From positions 15,945 through 79,944 of the forward strand of contig WFOA01000010.1 of the NCBI GenBank assembly GCA_015488325.1: a stretch of 64,000 nt of DNA, given 5' to 3'. Positions 26,586-47,724 of this stretch are shown here, piece after piece. The translations under genes and the position numbers were made by a program. The notes beneath the pieces are model-generated. The model was not told the DNA's origin, did no database searches, and saw only the letters and a program-made list of their open reading frames with translations. The DNA is from Acidimicrobiia bacterium (GTDB lineage Bacteria > Actinomycetota > Acidimicrobiia > Spongiisociales > ZC4RG35). Within the stretch, counting starts at the first letter, position 1, and each line of letters starts with the position of its first letter.

Positions 26586-27526
26586 CCGGCCCGAGCATCC
26601 GCCTCGCCCGACCCGACGATCTCCCCCAGATCCTCGACGTCCTGCGGGCCGCCCTGGGCGAGACGCCCCTGTTGCGACGCACCCCGGAGCTGTGGCGTTG
26701 GAAACACGTCGAGAACCCCTTCGGGCCGTCTCTGGTCCTCGTCGCCGAAGCCGACGGCCGGGTCGTCGGGGTACGGGCCTTCATGCGTTGGGAGTTGGAG
26801 ACGCCCGACGGTGACACCCTCCGGTGCGTCAGGGCGGTCGACACCGCCACCCATCCCGACTATCTGCGACGGGGGATCTTCCGGCGTCTGACCGAGTCGG
26901 CGATCGAATACGCCCGGGACGAAGGGGTGGATCTGGTCTTCAACACCCCCAACGCCAAGTCGGGGGCGGGATACCTGAAGATGGGGTGGCGGACCGTCGC
27001 CCGACTCGGGGTGATCGTCCGATGGCGGACGGGTCGGGTCGCACCCCTCGATTCCGATACCGTGCCCCGCCTCGACGACCATGTGGCGGCGGTCGACCCG
27101 CTGGATCCGCTGCCCCCGGCCAGACGGGGACACGGTCTCAGGACTCCCCGCCGCGACGCCTACCTCCACTGGAGGTTCTCACAGCATCCGACGGCACGCT
27201 ACGGAGCCGTCCGGTTCGGATCCGGGACCGCCGTGGTGCGACCCAACGTCCGTGCAGGACGCCGGGAGCTGGTGGTGTCGGACGTCCTCGGTGACGCCAC
27301 CGCGGGGCTGTTCCGGGAGGTGGCGAAGAGGAACCGCTCCCGCTACGTGGCCACCTGGTTCTCCCCGGCGGCACCGGAACGGCGCATAGCCCGACGTGCC
27401 CTGTACGCTCCGGTTCCGGGACTGCGGACCCTCACCCTCGTGGCCCGACCGCTACGGTCCCTCCCCGTGGACGTCTTCGATCTGGGGAACTGGGATCTGG
27501 CGGTGAGCGACCTGGAGTTGCTGTGA
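26582..27526 (+). CDS. GNAT-family N-acetyltransferase (Acetyltransf_6/FemAB-like) with C-terminal extension
   Basis: ATG overlaps the previous stop (ATGA). GNAT core (HPDYLRRGIFRRLTESAIEYARDEGVDLVFNTPNAKSGAGYLKMGW). Confidence 0.75.
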   Translation: MTGPSIRLARPDDLPQILDVLRAALGETPLLRRTPELWRWKHVENPFGPSLVLVAEADGRVVGVRAFMRWELETPDGDTLRCVRAVDTATHPDYLRRGIFRRLTESAIEYARDEGVDLVFNTPNAKSGAGYLKMGWRTVARLGVIVRWRTGRVAPLDSDTVPRLDDHVAAVDPLDPLPPARRGHGLRTPRRDAYLHWRFSQHPTARYGAVRFGSGTAVVRPNVRAGRRELVVSDVLGDATAGLFREVAKRNRSRYVATWFSPAAPERRIARRALYAPVPGLRTLTLVARPLRSLPVDVFDLGNWDLAVSDLELL

Positions 27527-28869
27527 GACAGCAGATCGTCCTCGGGATCGGCGCCGGGTTGACGGCACTGGTCGCGTTCGTCCTCGCCGCCGGCGCCGTC
27601 CCCCTCCACCTCGTGGTGCTGGCGGTGGCCGGCCTCTCCGTCACCTACCTGGTGGGTCGGGCGATGGCGACGGACTTCGACCGGTCCTGGCTCCCCGGTC
27701 TCCTGGTGGCCGGACTGGCCGCGAAGCTGGTCGGGGCCTGGGTCCGGTACTTCGTCCTCATCGAGGTGTACGGCGGTGTGGGTGACGCCCTCGGATACCA
27801 CAGCCGAGGCCTCCGCCTCGCCGAGATGTTCCGGGCGTTCACGGTCCCCACCTTCGAGGACGCCGGTTTCGGGTCGACCGGCACCCGGTTCGTCTCCTGG
27901 TTCACGGGTCTCGTCTACACGCCGTACCAGCCCGAGCCCCTCGGCGGTTTCTGGCTGTTCTCGCTGATCGCGTTCGCCGGCACGGTTCTCTTCTACGCGG
28001 CGGTGCGACGCAGCCTGCCACCGTCGACGTGGCGGCGGTTCCTCATCATGCTGATGTTCTGGCCGACGCTGCTGTACTGGCCGTCGTCGGTGGGCAAGGA
28101 AGCCCTGATCCTGGGCTTCGGAGGGGTGGTGACCTACGGGGCGGCGCGGCTGTTCGAGCGGTACCGCCTGAGCTGGCTGCTCGTCATCGGCGCGGCGATG
28201 GCCGTCATAGGCATCATCCGGGTCCACGTCGCCGGCCTGTTCGCCGGAGCGATCGTCGTCGGCATGCTCGTCTCCGCCGCACCTCGCGGTGCAGGCCCGA
28301 AGAGTCGCCGCCTCCTCCTCATGGCGGCCGGGTTCGCGGCGCTCATCCCCCTGGCCGCCCTGGTCTCGAGGGAGTTCGGCATCGACCCCAGCGGCCCCCT
28401 CGACCCCTCCGCCCTCGAGCCGGTCCTGTCCGAGGTGGCCCGCACCACCGGCCAGGGAGGCTCGGCGGTGCAGGGCGGGGTGATCCGCTCCATCGCCGAC
28501 GTCCCGGCCGGTGTCCTCAAGGTGTTGTTCCGTCCCCTCCCCTACGAGGCGTCCAACATCCAGATGCTGGCGGCCAGCGTCGAGGGCGTGGCGTTGCTCC
28601 TGTTGATCCTCTCCCGCACCCCGTGGATGATCGGGAACCTGCGTCGGCTGCGCCGCTTCCCGTATCTGATCTTCGCCGCCACGTTCTCGGCCGGTTTCGT
28701 GGTGGCCTGGAGCGCGATCCTCAACCTGGGGATCATCGCCCGCCAGCGGGCCCTCGTCATCCCCTTCGTCCTGACCCTCGTCGCCGGCCTCGGCTGGCCC
28801 CTGGCCGCCGGCGAGGAGCCGGCTTCCGCTGCCGAACCCGACCGGGACGCCGCCCTCAACCCCACTTGA
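27523..28869 (+). CDS. polytopic membrane protein, candidate Wzy-type polysaccharide polymerase
   Basis: 448 aa with about 10-12 predicted TM helices and a larger loop in the C-terminal half. Sits among glycosyltransferase genes. Polymerase function is inferred from context only. Confidence 0.6.
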   Translation: MRQQIVLGIGAGLTALVAFVLAAGAVPLHLVVLAVAGLSVTYLVGRAMATDFDRSWLPGLLVAGLAAKLVGAWVRYFVLIEVYGGVGDALGYHSRGLRLAEMFRAFTVPTFEDAGFGSTGTRFVSWFTGLVYTPYQPEPLGGFWLFSLIAFAGTVLFYAAVRRSLPPSTWRRFLIMLMFWPTLLYWPSSVGKEALILGFGGVVTYGAARLFERYRLSWLLVIGAAMAVIGIIRVHVAGLFAGAIVVGMLVSAAPRGAGPKSRRLLLMAAGFAALIPLAALVSREFGIDPSGPLDPSALEPVLSEVARTTGQGGSAVQGGVIRSIADVPAGVLKVLFRPLPYEASNIQMLAASVEGVALLLLILSRTPWMIGNLRRLRRFPYLIFAATFSAGFVVAWSAILNLGIIARQRALVIPFVLTLVAGLGWPLAAGEEPASAAEPDRDAALNPT

Positions 28870-29794
28870 GCGCGGCCCCCACGGCGCCGACCACCGCCAG
28901 CACCCCGGTGACCGCCGCCGCGCCCACCCCGGCCCACCACCAGGCGGCGACGACCGCGCCACATAGGAGCGCCTGCGCCCCGGCGGCCACGAACACGACC
29001 GTCGGCACGCTCCACCCCCGGTCGGCCAGCCGGTCGTAGAGATGGGACCGGTCCCCTTGGAACAGGGGCATCCCCGCCCTCCGCCGTCGCAGCACCGTCG
29101 AGACGAGGTCGACGAGGAACACGCCGAGCAACGAGCCGCCGGCGACCATCCCGACCACGTCTTCGCCTCCCAGCCGGACACCGGAGGCCACGAGCATCAG
29201 GCCGACCAGGTAGCTGCCGTTGTCCCCGAGGAACACCCGCGCCGGATGCCAGTTGAAGACACCGAACCCGACCAAGGCGGCACCGAGGGCGACTTCGGCA
29301 CCGAGATCCGCTCCCGACGTCGACCCGACCAGCCCCATCGCCACCAGCGTCACCAGGGCCACCGACGCGACCAACCCGTCGAGGCCGTCGAAGAGGTTCA
29401 CGGCGTTGATCCCCACCACCACGCCGGCGGCGACGAGGGCACCGCCGACGGGTCCGACCCCGAGAGCCCAGGCCACGAGCACCCCGGCGACGGCTTCGAC
29501 GGCGAGCCTGAGCACCGGGGGCAGGCCTCTGCGGTCGTCGACCAGCCCCAACGCGACCACCAGCCCTGCCGCGACCATCAGCCTCGGGGAGGGACGTCCG
29601 GTGAGTATCGACGAGACGACGAGGGCGCCGTACAGCCCCACCCCTCCGAGGGGCACCGCCGGGACCGTGTGGACTTTCAGGGCCTCCCCGGGTCGGTCGA
29701 CGATCCCCAGTCGGGGGCCGAGCGCCGGTGCGATCGCCGACCACCCGGCGGAGACGACTGCGGCGGCGAGCCCTCCGGCGATCAGGCCGACCAC
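28856..29794 (-). CDS. polyprenyl-phosphate N-acetylhexosamine-1-phosphate transferase (WecA/MraY family, GT4 polyprenol-P class)
   Basis: MraY/WecA motifs (VGINAVNLFDGLDGL, FLGDNGSYLVG). GTG start overlaps the upstream gene stop by 12 nt. The N-terminal 275 aa in the ORF track are an artefact. Confidence 0.75.
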   Translation of the reverse strand: MVGLIAGGLAAAVVSAGWSAIAPALGPRLGIVDRPGEALKVHTVPAVPLGGVGLYGALVVSSILTGRPSPRLMVAAGLVVALGLVDDRRGLPPVLRLAVEAVAGVLVAWALGVGPVGGALVAAGVVVGINAVNLFDGLDGLVASVALVTLVAMGLVGSTSGADLGAEVALGAALVGFGVFNWHPARVFLGDNGSYLVGLMLVASGVRLGGEDVVGMVAGGSLLGVFLVDLVSTVLRRRRAGMPLFQGDRSHLYDRLADRGWSVPTVVFVAAGAQALLCGAVVAAWWWAGVGAAAVTGVLAVVGAVGAALKWG

Positions 29795-31554
29795 ACCAGC
29801 ACCTCCGAGGTCTCGCCGCGGTGGACTTCGATCGTCCCCACCGGTTCGAACCCCATCTTCCGGTAGGCGGCGATCGCCGCCGAGTTGTCGGCGCCCACGA
29901 CCACCTTCACCTTCCCCACGCGGCTCATCGCGGTGAGGAGCTCCCGTCCCAGAACGGTGCCGATCCCTCGACCGCGCCGATCCGCCACCACCGCCATCGA
30001 CACCAGTTCGGCGTCGACGCCGACGTCGCCGCCTTCGTAACGGAAGGTCTCCCAGGCCCGCCGCAGCATCGTCGGGCGCAGCAACCGAGGTGCGGCCGCC
30101 ACGACCGCCCGGATCCCGAAGCGACGGACGAAGGAACGGTAGAAGGCGCCGATGTCGGCGACGCCGGCGACGAACCCGACCGGCCCGCACTCGTCCTCGG
30201 CGACGAGCACGACGGCGTCTTCGTGTTCCACGAGCGCACGGTAGAGGAGTGTCATGAACCGGCGTCCCAGACGGGGCAGGAAACCGGTGGAGATCGCTTG
30301 CGCGTGCAGGACGGCCAGGAAACGGGTGTCCCCTTCGTCGGCCCGCCGGACCCGGACCTCGCCGGAAGGTCCGTCGCCGAGGGCGGCCGCCAGCCGGTCC
30401 AGGCCTTTGGTGAGGGCGAGCTCCCGATAGGTGGAGAGGACGATCTCGACGACCCTGTCCTCGTCGAAGAGCCGTCTGGCCCGTTCGCGCCCGGCCCGGC
30501 CCATCCGAGAGGCCAGCTCCGGGTCGTCCCCGATGGTCCGGATCGCCCGGGCCAGGGACCGGGCGTCGGAGACGGGGACGAGGAGGCCGTTCTCGCCGTC
30601 GGCGACGACCTCCCGGCATCCCCGGATGTCGGTGGCGACGATGGGCAGGCCCATGGCGGCAGCCTCCATCGCCGCCCGGGGGAAGCCTTCACGGTGCGAC
30701 GGGAGCACGAACACGTCCATCGTCGGGTAGAGGGCATCGACGTCGGTGCGCATCCCCAGGAACCGGACGCCGTTCGCCTTCGCCCGTTCGATCATCGCGT
30801 CGCCGAGGTCGTCCGCCTTTTCGGGGTCCCGGGGCCCGATGCAGACCACCACGTACCGGTCGTCGAGGAGTCGGGCGGCCTCGAAGAGCTCCGGGTAGCC
30901 CTTCTCCGCCACCATCCGCCCCACCATGCCCACCACCACCGCGTCCGACGGGATGCCGAGCTCGGCACGCATCCGATCCCGATGGGACCGGTCGTACCGG
31001 GCGGGATCGAACCGGGCGAGGTCGACACCGTTGCCGAGATGCCGTGTCCGAGCCCGGGGTGCGAGACGCAGCCTGTGGGCCAGTTCGAGATCCTCCGCGC
31101 TCTGATAGAGCTCGGCGTCGGAGAACCGGGAGGCGACGAACTCCAGGGCGTAGACGACCAGGCGTTTCAGCGGTGGATCGTCGGGGGCCGCGTAGAAGCC
31201 GTGCACCGTGTTGACGACGACGGGCACGCCGGCCACACGGCCGAGGATCCGACCGTAGACGCCGGGTTTGGGGTTGTGGGTGTGCAGCACGTCCGGTCGG
31301 AGCCGCCTCAGCACCCTCCAGAGCTGGGCGGCTGCCCGCAGGTCGGCGCCGAGGCTCATCCCACGTGTCGACGCCGACAGTGCCACATGTTCGATGCCTG
31401 CCGCCTCCAGCTCGGCCACCCAGGGGCCGGGAGAGGAGATCCCCACCGACCGGATGTCCCTCTGGAGGGGTGCGAGGAGCTGGGGGAACACCAGGTAGCG
31501 GAGGGACAGGTCCACCGTCGTCAGGTGGGCGATCACCGGGCGCCGATCAGCCAT
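29782..31554 (-). CDS. bifunctional fusion: glycosyltransferase family 4 (N-terminal ~400 aa) + GNAT N-acetyltransferase (C-terminal ~190 aa)
   Basis: GT4 signature (VFVLPSHREGFPRAAMEAAAMGLPIVATD). GNAT motif A (ADRRGRGIGTVLGRELL...AAIAAYRKMGF). Confidence 0.85.
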   Translation of the reverse strand: MADRRPVIAHLTTVDLSLRYLVFPQLLAPLQRDIRSVGISSPGPWVAELEAAGIEHVALSASTRGMSLGADLRAAAQLWRVLRRLRPDVLHTHNPKPGVYGRILGRVAGVPVVVNTVHGFYAAPDDPPLKRLVVYALEFVASRFSDAELYQSAEDLELAHRLRLAPRARTRHLGNGVDLARFDPARYDRSHRDRMRAELGIPSDAVVVGMVGRMVAEKGYPELFEAARLLDDRYVVVCIGPRDPEKADDLGDAMIERAKANGVRFLGMRTDVDALYPTMDVFVLPSHREGFPRAAMEAAAMGLPIVATDIRGCREVVADGENGLLVPVSDARSLARAIRTIGDDPELASRMGRAGRERARRLFDEDRVVEIVLSTYRELALTKGLDRLAAALGDGPSGEVRVRRADEGDTRFLAVLHAQAISTGFLPRLGRRFMTLLYRALVEHEDAVVLVAEDECGPVGFVAGVADIGAFYRSFVRRFGIRAVVAAAPRLLRPTMLRRAWETFRYEGGDVGVDAELVSMAVVADRRGRGIGTVLGRELLTAMSRVGKVKVVVGADNSAAIAAYRKMGFEPVGTIEVHRGETSEVLVWSA

Positions 31555-33658
31555 CGATCGTGCTCCTCAGGACCTGCTCGTACCGGTCGATGCTCGCACC
31601 CATCGTGTACCTGCGGGCCAGCTCCCGGGCGGCGGCACCCATCCGGCGGCGACGCTCGGGATCCGCGGCGAGGTTCTTCAGGGCGGCGGCGGCACCTTCG
31701 ACGTCCCCGGGCCGGACCAGGATCCCCGTCGTACCGTCGGTCACCACTTCGGGGGTGCCTCCCACCCGGGTCGCCACCACCGGACGTCCCGCCGCCGCGG
31801 CCTCCAGCACGACGCCGGGGAGCCCTTCGGTGCGGGAGGTGGACAACAGCACGTCCGCCCATCCGAACAGCTCTTCCATCTCCGCCGCCGAACCGAGGAC
31901 CTCGATCCGGGGACCCGCCGCCGCCTCGACTTCGGTGCGCAACGGGCCGTCACCGGCGATCTTCGCCCACACGTCGGCGTCGGCCGCGGCGAGGTTGATC
32001 GCCTGCACCGCCGTCAGCGGGTCCTTCTCCGTGGACAGGGCGCCGGCCACCAGCACCCGCAGCTCGGGGTGCGGGAGGGGCGGGTCCAGCTCGAACCAGT
32101 GGTCGGGCACGCCGGTGGGCGCGACCGTGACCCGGTCGGGGGCCACACCCATCGAGTCGATGAGCTGGCTGCGGGTGGCCTCCGACACGGCGGTGATCCG
32201 GTCGCAACGTCCGAGGAGGTACCGCTGGATCCGAGCGTGCCACGGGCCCCGCACCCAGTACCGGGGTTCACCGATCGACGAGTAGACGACGCGGGGACGC
32301 CCGGGCATGAACCTGGTGGCGGCGACGACGGTCCGCAGGGTGGCTCCTCCGTTGGCCAGGACGACGTCGGGCCGGCGCCGCCGGAGGAGCCTGCGCAACA
32401 GCCGTGGCAGCGCCACGTCGGAGACGTCGGCTCCCCCGACGGCGTCGTCCACCTGGACCCGGGGGTCGGATCCGCCGGCTCTGAGGGCCACCAGGCTCGC
32501 CTTCCATCCCCGTGCCCGCAGGCCCTCGACGAGACGTTCACCGAACACTTCGGCGCCGCGTCGCCGATCGGAGCTGACCAGCACCATCACCGACCCGAAC
32601 CGGTCCCCCTTCGAGGCGACGACCCGCCGACGCCAGCGCGGGTAGGCGCGGGGGGCCCGCAGCGCCAGCACCGCCCGGTCGAGCCGTCGGTCGGCGTGGA
32701 GGGTGACCGCCAGGTTGAGGAGATGGGGCCTCTTCCCGTCGAACCGCACCAGGTCGGTGCGGGGGAGCAACTCCCGGGCGACCCGGAGGGGGAGACCGCC
32801 GGTGGAGGTCTCCGCCAACACCTCCCCGGGTACGGCGGCTCCCAGGGCGGAGGCGACGCTCCAGGCCAGATGCCCGAACCCGGCCAGGCCGTGGTCGTGG
32901 GCGAAGCGGACCGCCGTCTCCCAGTCGAGGCCGTGCCGGGCGACTTCGACGAGGTCACGGAACAGCACCAGCCGGAACCGATGATCCAAGAGGGCGTGGG
33001 TACACAGGAACGCCGCCACGACCTCGTCGGGCAGCAGCCACCCGAGGTGGGTCTGGTCCGGCTCGGGGGGACGTGCCCGCTCCCACGCCTGCTCGGTCGC
33101 TCCGGCGGCGCGGCCGCGGAGTTGACGGTACGAGAAGAGGTCCCAGTGCAGGTCGACGTTGAAGACCACCCCGGAGGGGTCGCGGAACGGGATGTCCCGT
33201 TTGTCGGCTCTCGGTCGCTTCGGTGGAATCCCCAGACATTCGGGGTCGGAGGCGACGATCTCAAGGGTGCGACCGAGTTCGGCGGACGGGACGACCAGAT
33301 CGAGGTCGGTGAAGATCCGCTGGCCCGGGGTCGGGTAGAGCCGGTCCGCCAGCGCGGGCCCCTTCACCACCGCCGCTCGGATGCCGGCGGCGGCGAGGCG
33401 TTCCATGAGGCGACGGAGGCTGCGGCGCATCACGATGCCCAGGGCGACCGCCCGGGTCTGCACGGTGGACAGCTCGTGGCGATCGACGACGTCGCCGGGG
33501 GTGAGCAGGCCGACCAGACCGTGGCTACAGGCGAGTTCGAAGACGGCGCCGTCGACCGACCCGGCCGGGCGTTCCCATCCTGCCGCCACCGCCGCCAGCA
33601 CCCGTTCGGCGGGATCGGCCGCGAACAGCCATCCTTCGTTCGGTTCGGTGCCCCTCAC
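31547..33658 (-). CDS. fusion: uncharacterised nucleotidyltransferase-like domain (NTP_transf_5-type, N-terminal ~330 aa) + glycosyltransferase family 4 (C-terminal ~370 aa)
   Basis: N-terminal domain carries a polymerase-beta-like nucleotidyltransferase motif (RIFTDLDLVVP). C-terminal GT4 signature (LLSTSRTEGLPGVVLEAAAAGRPVVATRVGG). Confidence 0.8.
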   Translation of the reverse strand: MRGTEPNEGWLFAADPAERVLAAVAAGWERPAGSVDGAVFELACSHGLVGLLTPGDVVDRHELSTVQTRAVALGIVMRRSLRRLMERLAAAGIRAAVVKGPALADRLYPTPGQRIFTDLDLVVPSAELGRTLEIVASDPECLGIPPKRPRADKRDIPFRDPSGVVFNVDLHWDLFSYRQLRGRAAGATEQAWERARPPEPDQTHLGWLLPDEVVAAFLCTHALLDHRFRLVLFRDLVEVARHGLDWETAVRFAHDHGLAGFGHLAWSVASALGAAVPGEVLAETSTGGLPLRVARELLPRTDLVRFDGKRPHLLNLAVTLHADRRLDRAVLALRAPRAYPRWRRRVVASKGDRFGSVMVLVSSDRRRGAEVFGERLVEGLRARGWKASLVALRAGGSDPRVQVDDAVGGADVSDVALPRLLRRLLRRRRPDVVLANGGATLRTVVAATRFMPGRPRVVYSSIGEPRYWVRGPWHARIQRYLLGRCDRITAVSEATRSQLIDSMGVAPDRVTVAPTGVPDHWFELDPPLPHPELRVLVAGALSTEKDPLTAVQAINLAAADADVWAKIAGDGPLRTEVEAAAGPRIEVLGSAAEMEELFGWADVLLSTSRTEGLPGVVLEAAAAGRPVVATRVGGTPEVVTDGTTGILVRPGDVEGAAAALKNLAADPERRRRMGAAARELARRYTMGASIDRYEQVLRSTIDG

Positions 33659-33812
33659 CCCGGCCTTCCCTCGTCTCGATGCCTGCCGGGGCGAACGATG
33701 GCGTCACCCGCCCCGGTGCCTCCTTAGAGTACCGGCGGGCAGCCGGCCCGAAAGGGGGTACCGGGCGGCCGCCGCCCAGACGACCAGCGGACGACCAGGA
33801 GGATCCCAGCCC

Positions 33813-34409
33813 GTGACGACCCTCACCGCCGCCGACGGGACGGTGTTGGAGGCCCGATGGGACGGCCCCGCAGACGCCGGGATGGCGGTTGTGTTCTGCC
33901 ATCCCCATCCCGGTTACGGGGGGACCATGACCGCCCCCCTCATGAACGGTGTCACCGACGGGCTCACGGCGAGGGGTTTCGCCGTCCTCCGCTTCAACTT
34001 CCGTGGTGTCGGCGAGTCGGGCGGGCACCACGACGACGGCGAAGGAGAGGTCGCCGACGTCGCCGCGGCGGTCGCCGCCGCCGAGGCCCGCCACCCCCGG
34101 GTCTCGGTGTGCGGCTGGTCCTTCGGGGCGGCGATGGCCCTGGGTTGGATGGCCCGGTCCCGACGGGCTCTCCCCTTCGTCGGGATCGCCCCGCCCCCTC
34201 AGCTCTGCCCTCCGCCCGACGAGGTACCGCCCGGTCCGAAGCTCATCGTCGTCGGCGACCGTGAACAGGTGATCGACCTCGACGCCCTCCGCGCCTACGC
34301 CGCCGCCATCGGGGCGACGGTCGAGACGCTCGTCGGCTCGGACCATTTCTTCGTGTTCCGCCACACCCAGGTGGCGGAGATGGTGGCCGGTTTCCTCAGC
34401 GCGGAGTGA
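33813..34409 (+). CDS. alpha/beta hydrolase (small, COG2945-like)
   Basis: GTG preceded by AGGAGG. GxSxG nucleophile motif (GWSFGAAMAL). 198 aa. Confidence 0.75.
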   Translation: MTTLTAADGTVLEARWDGPADAGMAVVFCHPHPGYGGTMTAPLMNGVTDGLTARGFAVLRFNFRGVGESGGHHDDGEGEVADVAAAVAAAEARHPRVSVCGWSFGAAMALGWMARSRRALPFVGIAPPPQLCPPPDEVPPGPKLIVVGDREQVIDLDALRAYAAAIGATVETLVGSDHFFVFRHTQVAEMVAGFLSAE

Positions 34410-34599
34410 ATCCGCGGTTTCGAGCCTCGGCGAGCTCGTCCGGTCCGAAGGACGCCAACAGGTTCCGCCCGAGCAGGTCGTCGGCTTCCACCCTGGCCTC
34501 GAGCAGCTCGTACTGTCGGGGATCGTCGGTGTCATAGACCACCATGTCGTCGCGGGTTCCCACGTAGCGGTGGTGCTCGAACCTCCGCAGCCGGGGCAT
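34396..34599 (-). CDS. small hypothetical protein (67 aa)
   Basis: ATG preceded by GGGGAGGAG. Start overlaps the stop of the upstream zinc-ribbon gene by one base (TGATG). Acidic, helical composition. Confidence 0.6.
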   Translation of the reverse strand: MPRLRRFEHHRYVGTRDDMVVYDTDDPRQYELLEARVEADDLLGRNLLASFGPDELAEARNRGFTPR

Positions 34600-34901
34600 C
34601 ACTCCTCCCCTCCCCGACCGGTCGGCACCTCGGCTCCGCAGTTCGGGCAGGTGGCGACGGCGATGTCGCCGACGATGAAACGGAACTCGCATTCGGGACA
34701 CTGCACCCGGGGCGATGGCGGTTCGGGCCGCGGAGGAGGCGGAGGCGACGTGTATCCCGGGGGTGCCCCGGCCGCCTGGCCCGGTCCGGGCCGAGCTCCG
34801 GCGGCCCTCACCGCGTTCACCGACCCGCAGGCCGGACAGGAGAACTTCCCGGGACCGGGCACCTCGAACTGCGTGTGGCATGCTCCGCACCGTACGATCA
34901 T
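34599..34901 (-). CDS. double zinc-ribbon protein (two CxxC...CxxC modules separated by a Pro-rich linker)
   Basis: CGACHTQF...CPACGS and CPECEF...CPNCGA motifs. 100 aa. Confidence 0.7.
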   Translation of the reverse strand: MIVRCGACHTQFEVPGPGKFSCPACGSVNAVRAAGARPGPGQAAGAPPGYTSPPPPPRPEPPSPRVQCPECEFRFIVGDIAVATCPNCGAEVPTGRGGEE

Positions 34902-35338
34902 CCTTCACCTCCCACCGGCTCGCCGACCGCCCCGATCGCCGCCAGATACTCGGCCTCCAGGGCCAGCACGGCGACGACGTCGTCCCGAGGGTAGGAGACG
35001 CCGTGACGGAGGGCGATCTGGTCCATGATGTACTCGACGGCCGCCGGGGCGCCGCCGGCCGTGACCTCCACCGGGGTGCGTCGACGCCTCTGGGCGAGCC
35101 CCTGGAGGTAGTAGACCTCCCATTCGATGATCCGGCGGATGTCGGAACGTCTGAGACGTGCCGCCAGCTCGGAGTCGAGCCGCTCGTGGATGAAGGCGAC
35201 GGCGTCTTCCACGACGTACACGGGTTCGATCGGACCCGAACTGCGACGTTTGGCCTCCTGGTAGACGAGGGCGGCGACGATGAAGAAGAAGATCGCCGCC
35301 AACAGACCGGCGAGGGCGACGGTGGTGACCCCGGACAT
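34898..35338 (-). CDS. membrane-anchored hypothetical protein (single N-terminal TM helix)
   Basis: N-terminal TM helix (VALAGLLAAIFFFIVAALVY). Stop overlaps the zinc-ribbon gene start. Confidence 0.6.
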   Translation of the reverse strand: MSGVTTVALAGLLAAIFFFIVAALVYQEAKRRSSGPIEPVYVVEDAVAFIHERLDSELAARLRRSDIRRIIEWEVYYLQGLAQRRRRTPVEVTAGGAPAAVEYIMDQIALRHGVSYPRDDVVAVLALEAEYLAAIGAVGEPVGGEG

Positions 35339-35370
35339 GGTCTGAACTGTAGATGTCTTCCGGCCGGATC

Positions 35371-36480
35371 TCAGAGCCCGATCCGGTCGGCCAGGAGCCG
35401 CCGATGGTGGGCGGGGTCCCCGAACATGAGCTGGGTGCTCTTGGCCCGGCGAAAGTACAGGTGGGCGTCGTGTTCCCAGGTGAAGCCGATGCCGCCGTGG
35501 ACCTGGATGTTCTCACCGGCGCAGAACAGGGCCGCTTCGGAACAGTACGACTTGGCGAGGGGGGCGAGCTCGTCGAGTTCGTCGTCGCCTGCCGCCAGGG
35601 CGACGGCGGCCGCGGAGGCGGCGGCGCGGGCCGACTCGGCCTGGACCAGCATGTCGGCGCAGGTGTGCTTCACCGCCTGGAAGGACCCGATCGGCCGCCC
35701 GAACTGGTGTCGTTCTTTGGCGTAGGACACCGCCATGTCGAGGCAGCGTTCGGCGAGGCCGACCTGTTCGGCGGCGAGGGCCACCGACCCGACCTTCACC
35801 GCCCGTTCCAACAGGTCCTCACCGGCCGCCGGGAGCCGGGCGTCGTCGGGGACCTCCACCCCGTCGAAGCGGACATCGGCGAGGGCCCGGGTGAGGTCGA
35901 GGGCGTCGAGACGGCGGCGTTCGGCCGCCGCAGCCGGGACGACGAACCACGAGACCCCGTCGCCGGTCCGGGCCGCCACCAGGTAGTCGTCCGCCACGTG
36001 CCCGTGGGCGACGTAGCGCTTCGTCCCGGTGATGACCCATCCGTCGTCGGCGGCGACGGCTTCGGTGGCGACACCTGCGGGTTCCCACTCCCCCGTCGTC
36101 TCGGTGACGGCGGGAACGACGATCCGTGTCCCGTCGGCGATGCCGGGGAGCAGGGATTCCTTGTGGGCGTCGGAACCGCCGGTGAGCAGAAGGTCGGCGG
36201 CGAGTACCGCCGAGAACAGGTAGGGGGTCGGGTCGAGGGCACGACCCATCTCTTCGATCAGCACCGCCGCTTCGAGGTGTCCGAACCCCGCCCCTCCGTA
36301 CTCCTCGGGGATCAGCATCGCCTGCCATCCCATGGCAGCCATCTCGTCCCAGTGGGCGCGGTCGAACCCTTCGGGGAGGTCGATGACCCGCCGCAGCTCC
36401 GCGGAGGGGAGGCGTTCGGAGAACCAGCGCCGGGCGACGCGCGCCAGTTCCTGTTGTTCCTCGCCGAAGGCGACTCCCAT
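35371..36480 (-). CDS. acyl-CoA dehydrogenase family protein
   Basis: Starts MGVAFGEEQQELARVARRWF. ACAD C-terminal motifs (QVHGGIGFTWEHDAHLYFRRAK). Upstream ORF-track extension rejected. Confidence 0.85.
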   Translation of the reverse strand: MGVAFGEEQQELARVARRWFSERLPSAELRRVIDLPEGFDRAHWDEMAAMGWQAMLIPEEYGGAGFGHLEAAVLIEEMGRALDPTPYLFSAVLAADLLLTGGSDAHKESLLPGIADGTRIVVPAVTETTGEWEPAGVATEAVAADDGWVITGTKRYVAHGHVADDYLVAARTGDGVSWFVVPAAAAERRRLDALDLTRALADVRFDGVEVPDDARLPAAGEDLLERAVKVGSVALAAEQVGLAERCLDMAVSYAKERHQFGRPIGSFQAVKHTCADMLVQAESARAAASAAAVALAAGDDELDELAPLAKSYCSEAALFCAGENIQVHGGIGFTWEHDAHLYFRRAKSTQLMFGDPAHHRRLLADRIGL

Positions 36481-36530
36481 GTCGGCTCCTTCCCCGGGGC
36501 CAGCACAGGTTAGCGGTCGTTCACCGCCCT

Positions 36531-38321
36531 TCAGAACGCCTCGACGGCCAGCTCCATGATCCGTCCGTCCTCGGATTCGGCTGCACGCCGGCGGGCGGCG
36601 ACCTGGGGTGCCACCGACCGCACGAAGAACCGGGCCGACTCCACCTTGCCGGCGTAGAAGGGGTCGTCGGCGACCTTGGGGGCGGCGACTTCGGCGTGGC
36701 GCAGGAGCAGCCACGCCACCACGACCTCGGCGAGGCTGAACAGAAGCGGAGTCGCGTGGAGGCCCGTCAGGTAGATCTCGGCCGGTTCGGTCTGGGATGC
36801 GACGAGGTGGCCGACCATCGCGCCCACATGGGCCTGGGCGTCGTCGAGCATCCGCCCCAACAGCTCCCGCTCGGCCGACACCGGGTCGTCGGCGCCTCCG
36901 GCCTTGACGAACTCGGCGATCTCGGCGGCGAGGGCGGCCACGGCCTGGCCCTGATCCCGTGCGATCTTGCGGAAGAACAGGTCGAGACCCTGGATGCCGG
37001 TCGTGCCTTCGTAGATGCTGTCGATCTTCGCGTCCCGGATGTACTGTTCCAGCGGGTAGTCCTTCAGGTATCCGGAACCTCCGAGGGTCTGAAGGGACAG
37101 GGAGAGCAGCTCGTACCCCTTCTCCGACGAGTACCCCTTGACCAGGGGCAGCAGCAGATCGTTGCGCCGCCGCCAGGTGTCGTCGTCGGGATGGAGGTGG
37201 ACCTGATCCTGCACCCAGGCCGTGTAGGCGACGAGGGCGCGCAGCCCTTCGGCCCAGGCCTTTTGGATCATCAGCATCCGCCGGACGTCGGGGTGGGCGA
37301 TGATCGGGACCCGCGGGGACGTCTTGTCGGCGGCCCTGGTGAGATCCGGACCTTGGATCCGCTCCTTGGCGTATTCGAGGGCGTTGAGGTAGCCGGTCGA
37401 CAGGGTCGCCATCGACTTGGCGCCGATCATCATCCGGGCGTGCTCGATGACCCGGAACATCTGGCGGATCCCGTCGTGAACACCCCCGACGAGGTATCCG
37501 ACTGCGGGACGGTCCATCCCGAGGGTCAGCTCGCAGGTCGCCGACCCGTTGATGCCCATCTTCTTCTCCAGGTTGGTGGCGACGATCCCGTTGCGTTCGC
37601 CGAGGGTTCCGTCGGGGTTCACCAGGAACTTGGGGACGATGAACAGGGAGAGCCCCTTCGTTCCGGGTCTCGCACCTTCGGGTCGGGCGAGGACCAGGTG
37701 GATGATGTTCTCGGCGCCGTCGTGTTCGCCTCCGGTGATGAACCGCTTCACCCCTTCGAGGTGGTACACGTCGCCGTCGACGTGGGTCGCCTTGGTCGTT
37801 CCGGCGCCGACGTCGGAGCCGGCGTCGGGTTCGGTGAGGACCATCGTCGCGGCCCAGCCCCGCTCGACCATCGTCCGGGCGAGGTCACGCTGGGCCGGCG
37901 TGCCCTCCTCCCACAGCACCCGGGCGAACAGTGGACCCGACGCGTAGAAGGTGATGGCCGGGTTCGCTCCGAGCAGGAACTCCTGGGTCGCCCAGAAGAT
38001 GGTGGGGGGCACCACCATGCCGCCGAGCTCTTCGGGGATCCCGAGCCGGTCCCAACCGGTTTCCCGCAGCAGCGCCAGGGCTCCCTTCACCTCGTCGGGG
38101 AGGTGGATCTCGCCGTCGGTCAGCTCGAGGGGGGTACGGTCGGCGAGGGCGAACGACCGGGCCCATTCCTCGCGGGCGAAACGTTCGACCTCCCGGAGGA
38201 TGTCGCGGGCCGTGTCGAGGTCGAGGTCGGAGAACGCGTCGAGGTGCTCTTGGATGCCCAGCACCTCGAACAGGTTGAATTCCAGGTCCCGCAGGTTCGA
38301 CCGGTAGTGGGTCATGGCCAT
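36531..38321 (-). CDS. acyl-CoA dehydrogenase, long form (FadE-like, ~596 aa)
   Basis: Starts MAMTHYRSNLRDLEFNLFEVLG. ACAD N-terminal, middle and C-terminal domains are all present. RBS-like GAAGGG lies upstream. Confidence 0.85.
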   Translation of the reverse strand: MAMTHYRSNLRDLEFNLFEVLGIQEHLDAFSDLDLDTARDILREVERFAREEWARSFALADRTPLELTDGEIHLPDEVKGALALLRETGWDRLGIPEELGGMVVPPTIFWATQEFLLGANPAITFYASGPLFARVLWEEGTPAQRDLARTMVERGWAATMVLTEPDAGSDVGAGTTKATHVDGDVYHLEGVKRFITGGEHDGAENIIHLVLARPEGARPGTKGLSLFIVPKFLVNPDGTLGERNGIVATNLEKKMGINGSATCELTLGMDRPAVGYLVGGVHDGIRQMFRVIEHARMMIGAKSMATLSTGYLNALEYAKERIQGPDLTRAADKTSPRVPIIAHPDVRRMLMIQKAWAEGLRALVAYTAWVQDQVHLHPDDDTWRRRNDLLLPLVKGYSSEKGYELLSLSLQTLGGSGYLKDYPLEQYIRDAKIDSIYEGTTGIQGLDLFFRKIARDQGQAVAALAAEIAEFVKAGGADDPVSAERELLGRMLDDAQAHVGAMVGHLVASQTEPAEIYLTGLHATPLLFSLAEVVVAWLLLRHAEVAAPKVADDPFYAGKVESARFFVRSVAPQVAARRRAAESEDGRIMELAVEAF

Positions 38322-38349
38322 CCCTTCTCTTTTCAGCACCCAGTCTAAT

Positions 38350-38365
38350 TTGAGTAATAGCTCAA
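38350..38365. promoter_or_regulatory. palindromic candidate TetR operator TTGAGTAATAGCTCAA in an AT-rich divergent intergenic region
   Basis: 5-bp inverted arms (TTGAG/CTCAA) around a 6-bp spacer, inside a local AT-rich patch (cagtctaatttgagtaatagctcaagaacattcg) between the TetR and acyl-CoA dehydrogenase genes. Confidence 0.5.
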
Positions 38366-38403
38366 GAACATTCGACCTCCGGGAACCTGGTACGGTCGCC
38401 ACC

Positions 38404-38949
38404 ATGAGGAACCGCGCCGGTATCGAGACCCGGGAGCGAATCCTGGAAGCGACCCGCACGCTCCTCTCCGAGCGAGGTCTGGAGGGCACCACCGTCAAGG
38501 CGATCTGCGAGGTCGCCGGGATCCTGGCCGGGAGCTTCTACAACCTGTTCGACTCGAAGGAGCAGGTGGTGCTGTCCGTCGTCGCCGAGGCGATCGCGGC
38601 CGTCGACCCCGACGGCCCGGGCCCCGAGAGCGTGGCCGAACTCGTCGAGGCGTACGTCCGGTTCGTCACCGAGGAACAGACCCTGGCGAGGGTGTACCTG
38701 GCCGTGGCGGTGAGCAAAGGCCTCCAAGACCCCGAGATGGCCCGACGGGTGCTCCGACACCACGAGCAGCGGGTCGAACGGTTCCGACGTGCCCTGGCCG
38801 CCGAAGGACTCGGCGAACCGGAGGCCTCCCTGCGGGCGGAGGCCGTCGCCGCCACGTTGGAGGGGTATGCCCTCCATGCCCTGTTGGACCCCGGCTTCGA
38901 TCTGGCCGCCCACGCCCTCAGGTTGGTGAACGAGACGGTGGGAGCATGA
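38404..38949 (+). CDS. TetR/AcrR-family transcriptional regulator
   Basis: Helix-turn-helix N-terminus (RERILEATRTLLSERGLEGTTVKAICEVAGILAGSFYNLF). Divergent from the acyl-CoA dehydrogenase genes. Confidence 0.85.
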   Translation: MRNRAGIETRERILEATRTLLSERGLEGTTVKAICEVAGILAGSFYNLFDSKEQVVLSVVAEAIAAVDPDGPGPESVAELVEAYVRFVTEEQTLARVYLAVAVSKGLQDPEMARRVLRHHEQRVERFRRALAAEGLGEPEASLRAEAVAATLEGYALHALLDPGFDLAAHALRLVNETVGA

Positions 38950-39557
38950 AGGTGGAGACGCTGCGGGACGACGACACCCTCGTCGTTCGACGGGTACCGT
39001 CGATCGGCCCCTTCGACAACAACGCCTACGTCGTCGGTACCCCCGGCGGGGCAGCAGCGGTGATCGACGCCGCTGCCGAACCGGAGCTGATCATCGAGGC
39101 CTGCGCCGGCCTGACACCGCAGATGATCGTCACCACCCACGGCCACCTCGACCACATCGGCGCCCTCGACGCCGTCCAAGAGGCCTTCGACATCCCGTTC
39201 CTCCTCCACCCGGCCGACACCGAGATCGCCCAACGCTCCCCCGACGCCCCCCTCGGCGACGGCCAGGAGATCGTCCTCGGCGACGTCGCCCTCCACGTCG
39301 TCCACACCCCGGGACACACCCCGGGTTCGGTCTGCTTCGTCGTCGAGCCCTTCCTGTTCTCCGGCGACACCCTCTTCCCGGGCGGTCCCGGCGCGACCCG
39401 GTGGGAGTACTCGAGCTTCGGCCAGATCATGGATTCGCTGGAACGGCGTCTGTTCACCCTCCCCGATCCCACCTTGGTCTACCCGGGCCACGGCGATCCG
39501 ACGACCATCGGCGCCGAACGTCCCCATCTGGACGAGTGGCGGGCGCGAGGTTGGTGA
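38946..39557 (+). CDS. MBL-fold metallo-hydrolase (glyoxalase-II-like)
   Basis: THGHLDH and HTPGHTPGS metal-binding motifs. Confidence 0.85.
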   Translation: MKVETLRDDDTLVVRRVPSIGPFDNNAYVVGTPGGAAAVIDAAAEPELIIEACAGLTPQMIVTTHGHLDHIGALDAVQEAFDIPFLLHPADTEIAQRSPDAPLGDGQEIVLGDVALHVVHTPGHTPGSVCFVVEPFLFSGDTLFPGGPGATRWEYSSFGQIMDSLERRLFTLPDPTLVYPGHGDPTTIGAERPHLDEWRARGW

Positions 39558-39582
39558 CCCCGAGGCGATAGGCTCGGGCGTC

Positions 39583-40506
39583 ATGGACTACGCCCTCATG
39601 ACCGAGCCGCAGATCGGCGGCACCTACGAACAGCTCCTCGAACTCGCCCGCTGGGCCGAGGCGGCCGGGATGGTCGCCTTCGCCCGTTCCGACCATCTCT
39701 ACTCGTCCCGGGAGCCTCGCCCCGACGCCACCGAGGCCTTCACCACCCTCGCCGGCCTCGCCCGGGAGACCGACCGGATCCGGCTCTGCGTGTTGGTGAC
39801 ACCGATCACGTTCCGTCACCCGGCGATCATCGCCAAGGCGGCCGCCACCATCGACCAGATGTCGGAGGGCCGCCTCGACCTGGGGATCGGAACCGGGTGG
39901 ATGGAGCTGGAACACGAGGCGTTCGGACTGACGTTCCCCCCGGAACGAGAGCGGTTCGAACGGCTGGAGGAGGCGATCCGCTACGTCCGCTCTGCCTTCG
40001 GAGACGACCACGCCCGCTTCGACGGACGCCACTATCACCTCGACGCCGAGGTGCGCCCCCGACCGTCGGGGACCCGCATCGTCGTGGGAGGCTCCGGTCC
40101 CCGCCGCACCCCCACCCTGGCCGGACGTTTCGCCGACGAGTACAACCATTTCCTCGCCCCACCGGAGACCATCGCCCCCAAGGTGGCGACGATGCGCCGG
40201 GCGGCAGAAGAGGCAGGTCGCGACCCCGAGGGGATCTGCGTGTCTGTGATGGGTCCCGTCGTGGCCGGCACCGACGAGGCGGACTACGCCGAGAGGCTGG
40301 CCCGGAGGGCGGCGAGCCGTGACCTGTCCCCGGCCGAATACGAGGAACGGCTGGTCGCGGCGGGCGTCCCGGTGGGCCCACCCGACCGACTGGCCGAGGC
40401 CGTCGGGGGTCTCGAAGCCGTCGGTGTCTCCAAGCTCTACCTGCAATGGGTCGACCTCGACGACCGCGAAGGCCTCGAAGCCACCTACCGGGCCCTCACC
40501 GGGTGA
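39583..40506 (+). CDS. LLM-class (luciferase-like) flavin/F420-dependent oxidoreductase
   Basis: Luciferase-like monooxygenase fold motifs (LDLGIGTGW, VVGGSGPRRTPTLAGRFADEYN). Confidence 0.8.
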   Translation: MDYALMTEPQIGGTYEQLLELARWAEAAGMVAFARSDHLYSSREPRPDATEAFTTLAGLARETDRIRLCVLVTPITFRHPAIIAKAAATIDQMSEGRLDLGIGTGWMELEHEAFGLTFPPERERFERLEEAIRYVRSAFGDDHARFDGRHYHLDAEVRPRPSGTRIVVGGSGPRRTPTLAGRFADEYNHFLAPPETIAPKVATMRRAAEEAGRDPEGICVSVMGPVVAGTDEADYAERLARRAASRDLSPAEYEERLVAAGVPVGPPDRLAEAVGGLEAVGVSKLYLQWVDLDDREGLEATYRALTG

Positions 40507-47654: not shown

Positions 47655-47695
47655 CGGCCCCGAGCATATCGGCCGTGCCACCCCGGAGATCGGAC

Positions 47696-47724
47696 CTTGA
47701 CGAAACCTTGACTACCCCTTGACT
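47696..47724. promoter_or_regulatory. three direct CCTTGAC repeats with exact 11-bp phasing in the divergent response-regulator/secreted-protein promoter region; candidate OmpR-family response-regulator binding site
   Basis: ccttgacgaaa / ccttgactacc / ccttgac start at 47696, 47707 and 47718. Each TTGAC also resembles a -35 hexamer. Confidence 0.55.

Follow-up and report, generated by a model that had tools for sequence, protein, structure and literature searches.

The Fusion Gene and Its Operon

The window, a 64-kb stretch of DNA from an Acidimicrobiia bacterium, carries on its minus strand a gene for a 703-residue protein (31547..33658, with the stop codon at 31547-31549; ORF list and Pfam) in which an N-terminal NTP_transf_5 domain is joined to a C-terminal GT4 glycosyltransferase. 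The frame opens with a GTG codon, preceded a few bases 5ʹ by the purine-rich AGGGAAGG, and its third-position GC content (GC3) of 0.88 matches that of other genes in the window. The halves are connected by a linker of about 10 residues, VVASKGDRFG (aa 346-355; 32594..32623, minus strand), across which there is no stop codon and no change of frame, and which coincides with a dip in AlphaFold2 pLDDT to ~70-79. The full-length model has a mean pLDDT of 92.6 and a pTM of 0.61, the relative orientation of the two domains being uncertain. A preliminary description of this DNA had given the same reading frame and the same pair of domains; both domain calls are right, and all Pfam matches exceed their gathering scores.

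The gene is the first in a translationally coupled operon. Its stop codon overlaps the ATG of the second gene in the 8 nt ATGGCTGA; this second gene encodes a 590-aa GT4-GNAT fusion (29782..31554, minus strand; Pfam) and directly follows the fused gene, or a stand-alone GT4 gene, in nearly all related loci. The third gene, which overlaps the second by 4 nt and whose position is conserved in relatives, encodes a WecA/MraY-type polyprenyl-phosphate sugar-phosphate transferase (28856..29785, minus strand; Pfam Glycos_transf_4, PF00953, E = 3e-24). The operon is located at the edge of a surface-glycan cluster of ~25 kb and the Wzx/Wzc type. On its other side, the divergent upstream region (33659..34409) comprises 139 bp of intergenic DNA and then an alpha/beta hydrolase gene (33798-34409, plus strand; Pfam).

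The N-Terminal Nucleotidyltransferase Domain

The N-terminal domain (aa 1-345; 32624..33658, minus strand; Pfam and a structural model of the domain) consists of a nucleotidyltransferase (NTase) fold followed by a C-terminal helical bundle. Its core (aa 61-271; 32846-33478, minus strand) matches NTP_transf_5 (PF14907) over profile positions 40-246 of 249 with E = 1.6e-24 and 87.3 bits (gathering score, 31.2), so that the nucleotidyltransferase profile proposed for this region is indeed found there. Four alignments (A1 to A4) were inspected, of which A2 holds the 19 fused proteins and A4 holds 67 sequences down to ~20% identity. K99 and G100 of VVKGPA (33353..33370, minus strand), the "hG[GS]"-type motif of polymerase-beta NTases, are invariant in all of them. 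The RIFTDLDLVVP motif singled out in the preliminary description maps to aa 114-124 (33287..33319, minus strand) and contributes R114 and, on a beta-strand, the metal-binding pair D118/D120. Conservation of this catalytic Asp pair, raised there as a check, is complete in the 67 sequences, as is that of R114. On the neighboring strand, VFNVDLHW (33143..33166, minus strand; alignments and model) supplies a third carboxylate, D169, which is invariant in the fused proteins and at least 90% conserved in the wider sets, and H171, which is invariant in A1 to A3 and at least 90% conserved in A4. The polymerase-beta-type catalytic set (K99-G100, D118, D120, and D169) is intact.

The model of this domain is confident (pLDDT 92.8, pTM 0.92) and places strands at aa 118-122 and aa 165-171. 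With the hG[GS] motif, the [DE]x[DE] pair, the third carboxylate, and the alpha/beta core all present, the modeled domain is a polymerase-beta-type NTase fold. The best PDB folds found by Foldseek were the MenT1 NTase toxin (E = 3e-5, TM 0.66 normalized by target), JHP933, and ANT(2ʹʹ)-Ia, and FAM46 was also among the matches; a search of the PDB with this domain by sequence and by profile gave no match. MenT1, JHP933, ANT(2ʹʹ)-Ia, LnuA, and FKRP share the core fold and carboxylate triad with the domain but have no detectable sequence relationship to it and differ in genomic context, and the helical bundle (aa 211-345) is an addition relative to solved polymerase-beta-fold NTases. We know of no member of NTP_transf_5, a large family, with a solved structure, a defined reaction, or biochemistry.

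Membership in three other families was considered and rejected. Sugar-1-phosphate nucleotidylyltransferases of the RmlA/GalU type (PF00483) gave no Pfam or NCBIfam match, the structural neighbors being polymerase-beta-type NTases. The LicD/fukutin/FKRP family gave no LicD (PF04991) match at E <= 0.1 and a weak fold match to FKRP (6kam_A, E = 0.19, 105 columns). MenT/AbiEii (DUF1814) toxins match at the level of fold only, with 15-20% identity and no Pfam match, and the gene has glycan-gene neighbors.

The C-Terminal Glycosyltransferase and Its Stand-Alone Orthologs

The C-terminal half (aa 356-703; 31550..32593, minus strand; Pfam and Foldseek) is a conventional GT4 glycosyltransferase of the retaining, GT-B type. 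Both lobes are matched above gathering scores, by Glyco_transf_4 at aa 368-518 and Glycos_transf_1 at aa 529-679, and the expected catalytic residues are present, namely the EX7E motif E611...E619 in EGLPGVVLE (31802..31828, minus strand) and K545 in TEKDP (32018-32032, minus strand), all invariant in the fused proteins. Foldseek matched this half to MshA, BshA, PglA, and PimA at E values of ~1e-19 to 1e-13 (4e-19 for MshA/BshA), with target-normalized TM scores of up to 0.83. The GT-B fold, EX7E motif, and conserved Lys are shared with these enzymes and with GlgM; however, identity is only 14-24% and NCBIfam equivalog scores fall far under their cut-offs, so donor and acceptor are not assignable.

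The same half is orthologous, at 45-54% identity over its whole length, to stand-alone GT4 proteins of 350-380 aa (e.g., P0179, P0192, P0198, P0201, and P0234). In Acidimicrobiia genomes without the NTase domain (loci L044-L048), the stand-alone gene opens the same operon in the same glycan cluster. Operon order and glycan cluster are alike in the two kinds of locus, as is the upstream flank of L044 and L046, whereas the 345-aa N-terminal NTase domain is absent. The GT4 half is an ordinary component of the glycan operon that also occurs on its own, a point missed in the preliminary description.

Conservation of the Fusion

The fusion is one gene and not two, as is evident from its continuous frame and from its relatives. 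The cluster at 90% identity has nine members from several sources and contigs, each 703 aa long, and the exact sequence is found in NCBI, ENA, and JGI assemblies. A further 18 clusters at 50% identity have the identical architecture (684-740 aa), and the junction of the two domains occupies an identical position across the 19 aligned fused homologs. Among species representatives of the Acidimicrobiia, about 25-30 carry it. NTP_transf_5 as a whole comprises 3,830 representative clusters matched at E <= 1e-3, mostly of 330-440 aa, and across that family a GT4 fusion is rare, as had been stated; within its own subfamily it is the rule and conserved across Acidimicrobiia.

The same data bear on the notion that the gene is an artefact in which faulty sequencing or assembly joined two genes, or that its N-terminal domain is a MenT/AbiEii-like NTase toxin. 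MenT1 is the best PDB fold match, and some assemblies carry frameshifted or split copies of the fusion (e.g., P0004 in L001). Both versions are nonetheless effectively refuted by the single-frame architecture conserved in the nine same-length proteins and about 25 species. The place of the gene within a translationally coupled glycan operon, the absence of an antitoxin-like partner, and a MenT resemblance confined to the fold also speak against them.

A Putative Peptide-Modification Module Beside Most Fused Genes

In 17 of the 19 fused loci with enough flanking sequence, a divergent module lies just upstream of the fusion. Its genes run GerE-PqqD-TatPre-PqqD-HprK and encode a regulator of the LuxR type, a Tat-signal protein between two peptide-binding PqqD proteins, and an HprK-like kinase. 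The module is absent from all five stand-alone loci, and no PqqD, HprK, or GerE genes occur within 10 kb upstream of the stand-alone GT4s. The association of module and NTase domain (17/19 versus 0/5) has a Fisher p value of 4.9e-4 when the shared ancestry of the loci is ignored. The module kinases best match TIGR04352 (HprK_rel_A) at 52-115 bits, under the 200-bit cut-off, and one module PqqD scores 34.8 bits with TIGR04353, just short of the cut-off of 35. These models, for HprK-related kinase A and a PqqD family peptide chaperone, belong to the HPr-rel-A system of NCBIfam/TIGRFAMs, which has no described function, is absent from the window, and went unmentioned in the literature searched.

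The two fused loci without the module are those of the window and its closest relative, L004. Six-frame HMM searches of the 64-kb window found no PqqD, HprK, or TatPre, and tblastn was also negative. Because the module is missing within reach at both loci, a peptide acceptor is not assertable for this genome. The NTase domain could accordingly be non-catalytic or vestigial here, for instance a scaffold left over after module loss with only the GT4 half mattering, and stand-alone GT4 orthologs do suffice in the same-flank genomes (L044 and L046). This is very unlikely, however, as every catalytic residue is retained, and between the window and L004 dN/dS is 0.20 for the NTase half and 0.27 for the GT4 half at a synonymous divergence of ~0.84. 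The lower value for the NTase half indicates that the domain is still under selection without a local module.

Proposed Function

A possible role for the domain comes from PsmN, an uncharacterized NTP transferase of the pseudomycoidin lasso-peptide cluster of Bacillus pseudomycoides (PMC6993621). PsmN is required in vivo for the addition of one to two hexoses to a Ser that must first be phosphorylated by an HprK, and its D134A/D136A double mutant is inactive in vivo; its discoverers considered both a novel type of glycosyltransferase and an enzyme that only prepares the substrate of a host one, without deciding between them (PMC6993621). Linear polyphosphorylated peptide (LPP) clusters likewise include a "putative NTP transferase," labeled NTP_transf_5 in Supplementary Data 2, and in that 2026 paper LppN showed no activity in a heterologous host, and it was suggested to depend on an additional partner (PMC13381572). 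The combination of RRE, HprK, and NTP_transf_5 is known from the published pseudomycoidin and LPP pathways (PMC6993621, PMC13381572). This link, together with the RRE/HprK module beside most orthologs, suggests action on a phosphorylated acceptor, and both lay beyond the reach of the preliminary description. The roles offered there, in which the domain would activate a sugar or transfer a non-sugar group, are conceivable but are not the best-supported lead.

The fusion may be a transferase of the PsmN kind, directed at phosphates and coupled to a GT4 for glycan assembly, a tentative reading with a little less than an even chance of being right. Beyond what is observed directly (the domains, catalytic residues, fold, operon, conserved fusion, and gene co-occurrence), we infer its chemistry, acceptor, and order of steps. 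The protein would be a bifunctional glycan-assembly enzyme. With its DxD...D metal site, the N-terminal domain would most likely take a nucleotide-linked substrate and act on a phosphate-bearing acceptor to produce a phosphodiester-linked sugar (phosphoglycosylation), and the fused GT4 would then supply that molecule's sugar chain or lengthen it. For most relatives, the probable acceptor is the Tat-signal protein, recognized by the PqqD-type RRE proteins and phosphorylated by the adjoining HprK-like kinase. At the window locus, where the module is missing, it would be encoded elsewhere or be a phosphorylated glycan or lipid intermediate. A broader version regards the fusion as a "Rosetta stone" for PsmN and LppN, in that NTP_transf_5 enzymes, rather than acting by themselves, would join with a GT4-type glycosyltransferase to assemble sugar chains on phosphates placed by a kinase. 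An entire Acidimicrobiia Wzx/Wzc polysaccharide pathway would in that case be linked to a module of RRE, HprK-kinase, and Tat-precursor to make a RiPP-like protein-phosphate-glycan conjugate, the window being a derived version that retained the enzyme while the peptide module was lost or relocated. This version is possible but doubtful.

A rival reading involves no peptide. LicD/FKRP enzymes have an NTase fold with a DxD site, and a phosphotransferase of that kind would draw on an alcohol or sugar activated as a CDP or NDP derivative to place a phospho-substituent or an inter-repeat phosphodiester on a lipid-linked polysaccharide. The shared fold and site, the weak match to FKRP, NTP_transf_5 fusions to deacetylase, Wzy_C, and sulfotransferase domains, and a window locus whose NTase domain is under selection without the RRE/kinase module all fit such an enzyme. 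It is unlikely, however, given the missing LicD match, the strong tie to PqqD/HprK in relatives, a glycan cluster in which no CDP-alcohol synthesis genes were seen, and the action of PsmN, the sole studied relative, on a phosphopeptide.

Sugar activation would instead have the N-terminal domain nucleotidylylate a sugar-1-phosphate, yielding the NDP-sugar that the GT4 fused to it requires as donor. Nucleotidyl transfer to a phosphate monoester would be the simplest chemistry for an NTase with a phosphorylated substrate, no RmlA/GalU-type gene was seen among the scanned cluster genes, and a Wzy_C-NTP_transf_5 fusion adjoins a GHMP sugar kinase and a Bac_transf gene, a kinase-plus-NTase pairing. 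Even so, this role is quite improbable. Known sugar-1-phosphate nucleotidylyltransferases have another fold (PF00483), the structural neighbors MenT, ANT, and FAM46 act on hydroxyl groups, and the target operon has no sugar kinase. Moreover, it leaves unexplained both the PqqD/HprK/precursor association and the hexosyl-phospho-peptide formed in E. coli, a host with UDP-hexoses of its own.

The conserved fusion suggests that the enigmatic NTP_transf_5 family works jointly with a glycosyltransferase, and it names a concrete candidate partner, as the recurrent fusions to Wzy_C, polysaccharide deacetylase, and sulfotransferase likewise do. The fused protein, a soluble two-domain enzyme, offers a direct test system for the chemistry, and the NTase role is genetically tractable through a series of three states: the GT4 by itself, the fusion beside the RRE/kinase module, and the fusion lacking that module. 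A true link to the Tat-signal protein would mean a new type of bacterial glycoconjugate, and the "Rosetta stone" reading, if true, a protein phosphoglycosylation of a kind not described in bacteria.

Comparison with PsmN and LppN

The N-terminal domain probably belongs to the same family as PsmN and LppN, the membership of PsmN resting on the papers' descriptions and the LPP supplementary table. In this reading, D134/D136 of PsmN would be equivalents of D118/D120, an equivalence drawn from the description of PsmN; the DxD pair is essential in the one and invariant in the other. As in the 17 of 19 orthologous fused loci, RRE and HprK-like kinase genes neighbor PsmN and LppN, and their clusters differ in this from the window, which has no HprK-like kinase, PqqD-type RRE, or precursor. 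Lasso cyclase, B2 protease, and SpI peptidase are absent here, and the candidate substrate in relatives is a Tat-signal protein of 160-260 aa rather than a short peptide. Other NTP_transf_5 fusions also join glycan enzymes (Polysacc_deac_1, Wzy_C, and Sulfotransfer_3), and unlike PsmN and LppN, the domain described here is covalently fused to a GT4 within a WecA-primed, Wzx/Wzc-type polysaccharide cluster.

The fusion gene and its nucleotidyltransferase domain

The fusion gene (31547..33658, minus strand) begins with a GTG start codon, carries the purine-rich stretch AGGGAAGG a few bases 5ʹ of that start, and encodes 703 aa. Its third-position GC of 0.88 is typical for genes of this 70% GC window. 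The preliminary description read the gene as a single-gene fusion of a nucleotidyltransferase to a GT4 glycosyltransferase and quoted the motif RIFTDLDLVVP, which is present at aa 114-124. Pfam bears out both halves: NTP_transf_5 (PF14907) covers aa 61-271 (E 1.6e-24; 87.3 bits against a cut-off of 31.2), and Glyco_transf_4 (aa 368-518) and Glycos_transf_1 (aa 529-679) also lie above their gathering scores. The linker between the halves is about 10 residues long and is free of stops or frame changes. An identical 703-aa protein is found in NCBI, and the 90%-identity cluster has nine members from several sources and contigs, each of 703 aa; the possibility that the fusion is really two genes therefore fails. 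A further Pfam match, "GT4-conflict" (26.6 bits against a cut-off of 26), was not taken as evidence of a defence role because stronger generic GT4 matches overlie it.

The N-domain was aligned in three sets: 24 close relatives, 19 full-length fused proteins, and 67 sequences down to about 20% identity. Residues K99, G100, R114, D118, D120, and D235 are invariant across all three, and the two catalytic Asp residues of the fold (D118 and D120), to which the preliminary description had drawn attention, are thus conserved throughout. D169 is invariant in the fused proteins and at least 90% conserved in the wider sets; H171 and H221 are invariant or at least 90% conserved, depending on the alignment. 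In an AlphaFold2 model of aa 1-352 (pLDDT 92.8, pTM 0.92), D118 and D120 share one strand, D169 and H171 sit on the adjacent strand, and a helical bundle follows at about aa 211-350. Together with the state of the GT4 half, these data show one gene with two domains predicted to be catalytically intact.

Sequence and profile searches found no PDB structure related to the N-domain, and no NCBIfam model covers it. By fold, Foldseek against the PDB matched exclusively polymerase-beta-fold nucleotidyltransferases. The top match is the toxin MenT1 (E 3e-5; TM 0.66 normalised by target), and an explanation of the fusion as a toxin or an artefact is given almost no credence. Further matches include JHP933, ANT(2'')-Ia, FAM46, and LnuA, with a weak and local match to FKRP. 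A LicD/FKRP-like phosphotransferase, in which the N-domain would decorate the polysaccharide with no peptide involved, is unlikely but not negligible.

The GT4 half and the glycan cluster

The C-terminal half is a standard retaining GT-B GT4, in which E611-x7-E619 and K545 are invariant among the 19 fused proteins. Its fold matches in Foldseek include MshA and BshA (E ~1e-19) as well as PglA and PimA. Every NCBIfam equivalog scores far below its cut-off, so neither donor nor acceptor can be named. A model of the full-length protein (pLDDT 92.6) has a pTM of 0.61 and so does not fix the relative orientation of the two domains.

The fusion gene is the first of a translationally coupled minus-strand operon. 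The second gene (29782-31554, minus strand) encodes a 590-aa GT4-GNAT fusion and overlaps the first by 8 nt; the third (28856-29785, minus strand) encodes a WecA/MraY-type initiating transferase and overlaps the second by 4 nt. The GT4-GNAT gene is itself a conserved fusion; nearly every related locus has it after the GT4, whether that GT4 is fused or stands alone. The operon forms the edge of a glycan cluster (~9.1 to 33.7 kb of the window) that contains GT1, GT2, and GT4 transferases, a Wzx-type flippase, a DRL-type oxidoreductase, epimerases, RmlC, a polysaccharide deacetylase, a PglF/CapD-type dehydratase, a GNAT, and a 931-aa Wzc-like tyrosine autokinase. The autokinase (19634-22429, minus strand) has its Wzc/EpsG-like polysaccharide tyrosine-autokinase domain at aa 380-545, and its aa 741-855 resemble the C-terminal region of BREX PglX methyltransferases (E 3e-10), an odd combination. 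A 448-aa protein (27523-28869, plus strand) without a Pfam or NCBIfam match is kept in the cluster across relatives at 35-83% identity. It is possibly membrane-bound, and because of its position in the cluster it may be a Wzy-type polymerase or a ligase. A 753-aa protein encoded at 2987-5248 (minus strand) combines Kelch/PD40 beta-propeller repeats with three CWB2 repeats, which bind the cell wall; it may sit on the cell surface, held by a secondary cell-wall polymer that the neighbouring glycan cluster perhaps makes.

A search with aa 353-703 returned hundreds of stand-alone GT4s of 350-380 aa at 45-54% identity. All five of the stand-alone GT4 loci that were examined (L044-L048) have the operon GT4, GT4-GNAT, and WecA genes in the same glycan cluster, without an NTase domain. 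These loci show the GT4 half to be, as far as sequence and gene neighbourhood tell, the ortholog of a stand-alone operon member, so that the NTase domain is an optional extra at the N-terminus of a protein that regularly belongs to the glycan assembly line. In a neighbour-joining distance tree of the GT4 domains, fused and stand-alone forms are interleaved; the tree carries no support values and therefore was not read for the number of gain or loss events.

Distribution of the fusion

Searching 1.84 billion representatives with the N-domain (phmmer, E <= 1e-3) gave 3830 matches, mostly of 330-440 aa. Among the 35 closest (E <= 1e-30), 18 are proteins of 684-740 aa with the same architecture, and most of the others are truncated or have different C-terminal extensions. 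When each GTDB species was represented by a single genome, scanning recovered 40 loci, nearly all in Acidimicrobiia MAGs, with the full fusion in about 25-30 of them. This shows a fusion conserved, by its sequence distribution, across one class of Actinomycetota. Two types of fused paralog occur: the first is followed by GT4-GNAT and then WecA, as in the window; in the second, the GT4 is more divergent, and GT4-GNAT and then a Bac_transf initiating enzyme come next.

Close NTase homologs that appear to stand alone mostly do not: several are really fused, and others are contig-end truncations or frameshifts. The 415-aa NTP_transf_5 protein P0004, seemingly "stand-alone", is an NTase-GT4 fusion disrupted by a frameshift, and its tail is read out of frame and rich in Arg and Pro. 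It adjoins a 334-aa ORF that public annotation lists as "hypothetical" on the opposite strand (L001:11124-12128, minus strand; equivalents in L024, L025, L027, L028, and L033) and that shadows a GT4 domain in antisense. Since the apparent stand-alone homologs are mostly such shadow-ORF, truncation, or frameshift cases, the notion of an NTase that switches between split and fused forms inside the close subfamily was abandoned.

A PqqD/HprK/Tat module upstream of the fused gene

In related loci, a conserved divergent module precedes the fused gene. It comprises a GerE/LuxR regulator, two PqqD-family proteins flanking an ORF of 140-260 aa, and an HprK-like kinase. The N-terminus of the ORF product is conserved and Tat-like (RRxLLKRGAxxGGAVxWxTPVVQTxGMxxAxAQ); its C-terminus varies and contains Cys, in some cases ending in ISHxEFxxxCC. 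Examples, all on the plus strand, are L005:8462-9064, L022:8597-9097, L015:7073-7720, L009:1964-2749, and L001:8051-8479. The ORF belongs to no Pfam or NCBIfam family and is a candidate for the precursor or substrate on which the RRE/kinase/NTase system acts. The best NCBIfam match of the kinase is TIGR04352 (52-115 bits, below the cut-off of 200), and one module PqqD scores 34.8 bits against TIGR04353 (cut-off 35). Literature searches found no paper on the "HPr-rel-A" system or TIGR04352.

Co-occurrence was assessed in the 19 fused loci whose upstream sequence extends for 2.9 kb or more and in the five stand-alone GT4 loci. PqqD genes are present in 17 of the former, most also with the kinase and regulator, and in none of the latter (Fisher p = 4.9e-4, kinship ignored). 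The NTase half is thus shown, at the level of gene content, to co-occur with an RRE/kinase/precursor-like module.

The two fused loci that lack the module are the window and L004, which is closest to it at 72% identity; in both, an alpha/beta hydrolase takes the module position. By tblastn and custom HMMs, PqqD, the HprK-like kinase, and the Tat-signal ORF are absent from the entire 64-kb window, and the sole match to the module GerE regulator is an unrelated GerE-type regulator (46974-47711). The window copy is, to judge from these searches, an atypical, module-less form of the fusion. Between the window and L004, dN/dS is 0.20 for the NTase half versus 0.27 for the GT4 half (synonymous divergence ~0.84); by this estimate the NTase half is under purifying selection despite the absent module. 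Such selection and the intact residues speak against a vestigial NTase domain, which is considered very improbable.

In the upstream flank (33798-40506), the alpha/beta hydrolase, a zinc-ribbon protein, a 146-aa protein, and two acyl-CoA dehydrogenases are divergent from the fusion gene; the flank also includes TetR, a metallo-beta-lactamase, and a luciferase-like monooxygenase. This flank is syntenic with L046:2038-9781 and L044:1-2627, from genomes in which no NTase domain is attached to the GT4. L011 and L032 keep part of it, with the zinc-ribbon protein, the 146-aa protein, and one acyl-CoA dehydrogenase placed directly outside the PqqD/GerE module. This shared flank indicates that the module and NTase domain were probably gained or lost at a fixed chromosomal site.

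Proposed function and relation to known peptide clusters

The fusion is real and more than a chance pairing of domains. It is a new, conserved variant within the known NTP_transf_5 family, and literature searches found no paper on an NTP_transf_5-GT4 fusion. Elsewhere in the representative set, NTP_transf_5 is fused to sulfotransferase (Sulfotransfer_3), polysaccharide deacetylase (Polysacc_deac_1), Wzy_C O-antigen-ligase-type, and VanZ domains, as in proteins P0047 (636 aa), P0022 (430 aa), P0082 (762 aa; locus L050), P0095 (826 aa; locus L049), and P0138 (520 aa). The Wzy_C fusion is followed by genes for a GHMP sugar kinase and a Bac_transf initiating transferase. This kinase-plus-NTase theme would suit a sugar-1-phosphate nucleotidylyltransferase that feeds the GT4, the sugar activation suggested in the preliminary description; the N-domain fold and the RRE/HprK association speak against it, and it is doubtful.

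In paeninodin and pseudomycoidin lasso peptide clusters and in those of linear polyphosphorylated peptides (LPPs), a group described recently, an RRE, an HprK-type kinase, and an "uncharacterised NTP transferase" form an accessory set (PMC13381572); the LPP transferase is labelled NTP_transf_5 in Supplementary Data 2 of that study (PMC13381572). In E. coli, the pseudomycoidin transferase PsmN is needed to put one or two hexoses on the phosphate placed by the kinase PsmK at the C-terminal Ser; no hexose is added when PsmK is missing, and a D134A/D136A mutant of PsmN is inactive (PMC6993621). Its authors offered two options, a new kind of glycosyltransferase or a maker of substrate for a host glycosyltransferase (PMC6993621). 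The LPP counterpart, LppN, showed no activity in B. subtilis, and its dependence on a partner encoded outside the core cluster was proposed (PMC13381572).

We infer, tentatively and at a little under even confidence, that the N-domain is PsmN-like and would act on a phosphate-bearing acceptor to give a phosphodiester-linked sugar, with the fused GT4 supplying or extending the glycan. The acceptor would be the kinase-phosphorylated Tat-signal protein in most relatives; in the window genome it may be encoded elsewhere or be a phosphorylated glycan or lipid intermediate. The fusion gives the PsmN/LppN question a specific, testable hypothesis, with a GT4 as the partner. Unlike the PsmN and LppN clusters, the window copy has no PqqD or HprK-like kinase gene in the surrounding 64-kb window, as searched by tblastn and HMMs. 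The module-bearing fused loci, with PqqD, HprK-like kinase, and NTP_transf_5, resemble those clusters in their combination of RRE, HprK-type kinase, and NTP transferase.
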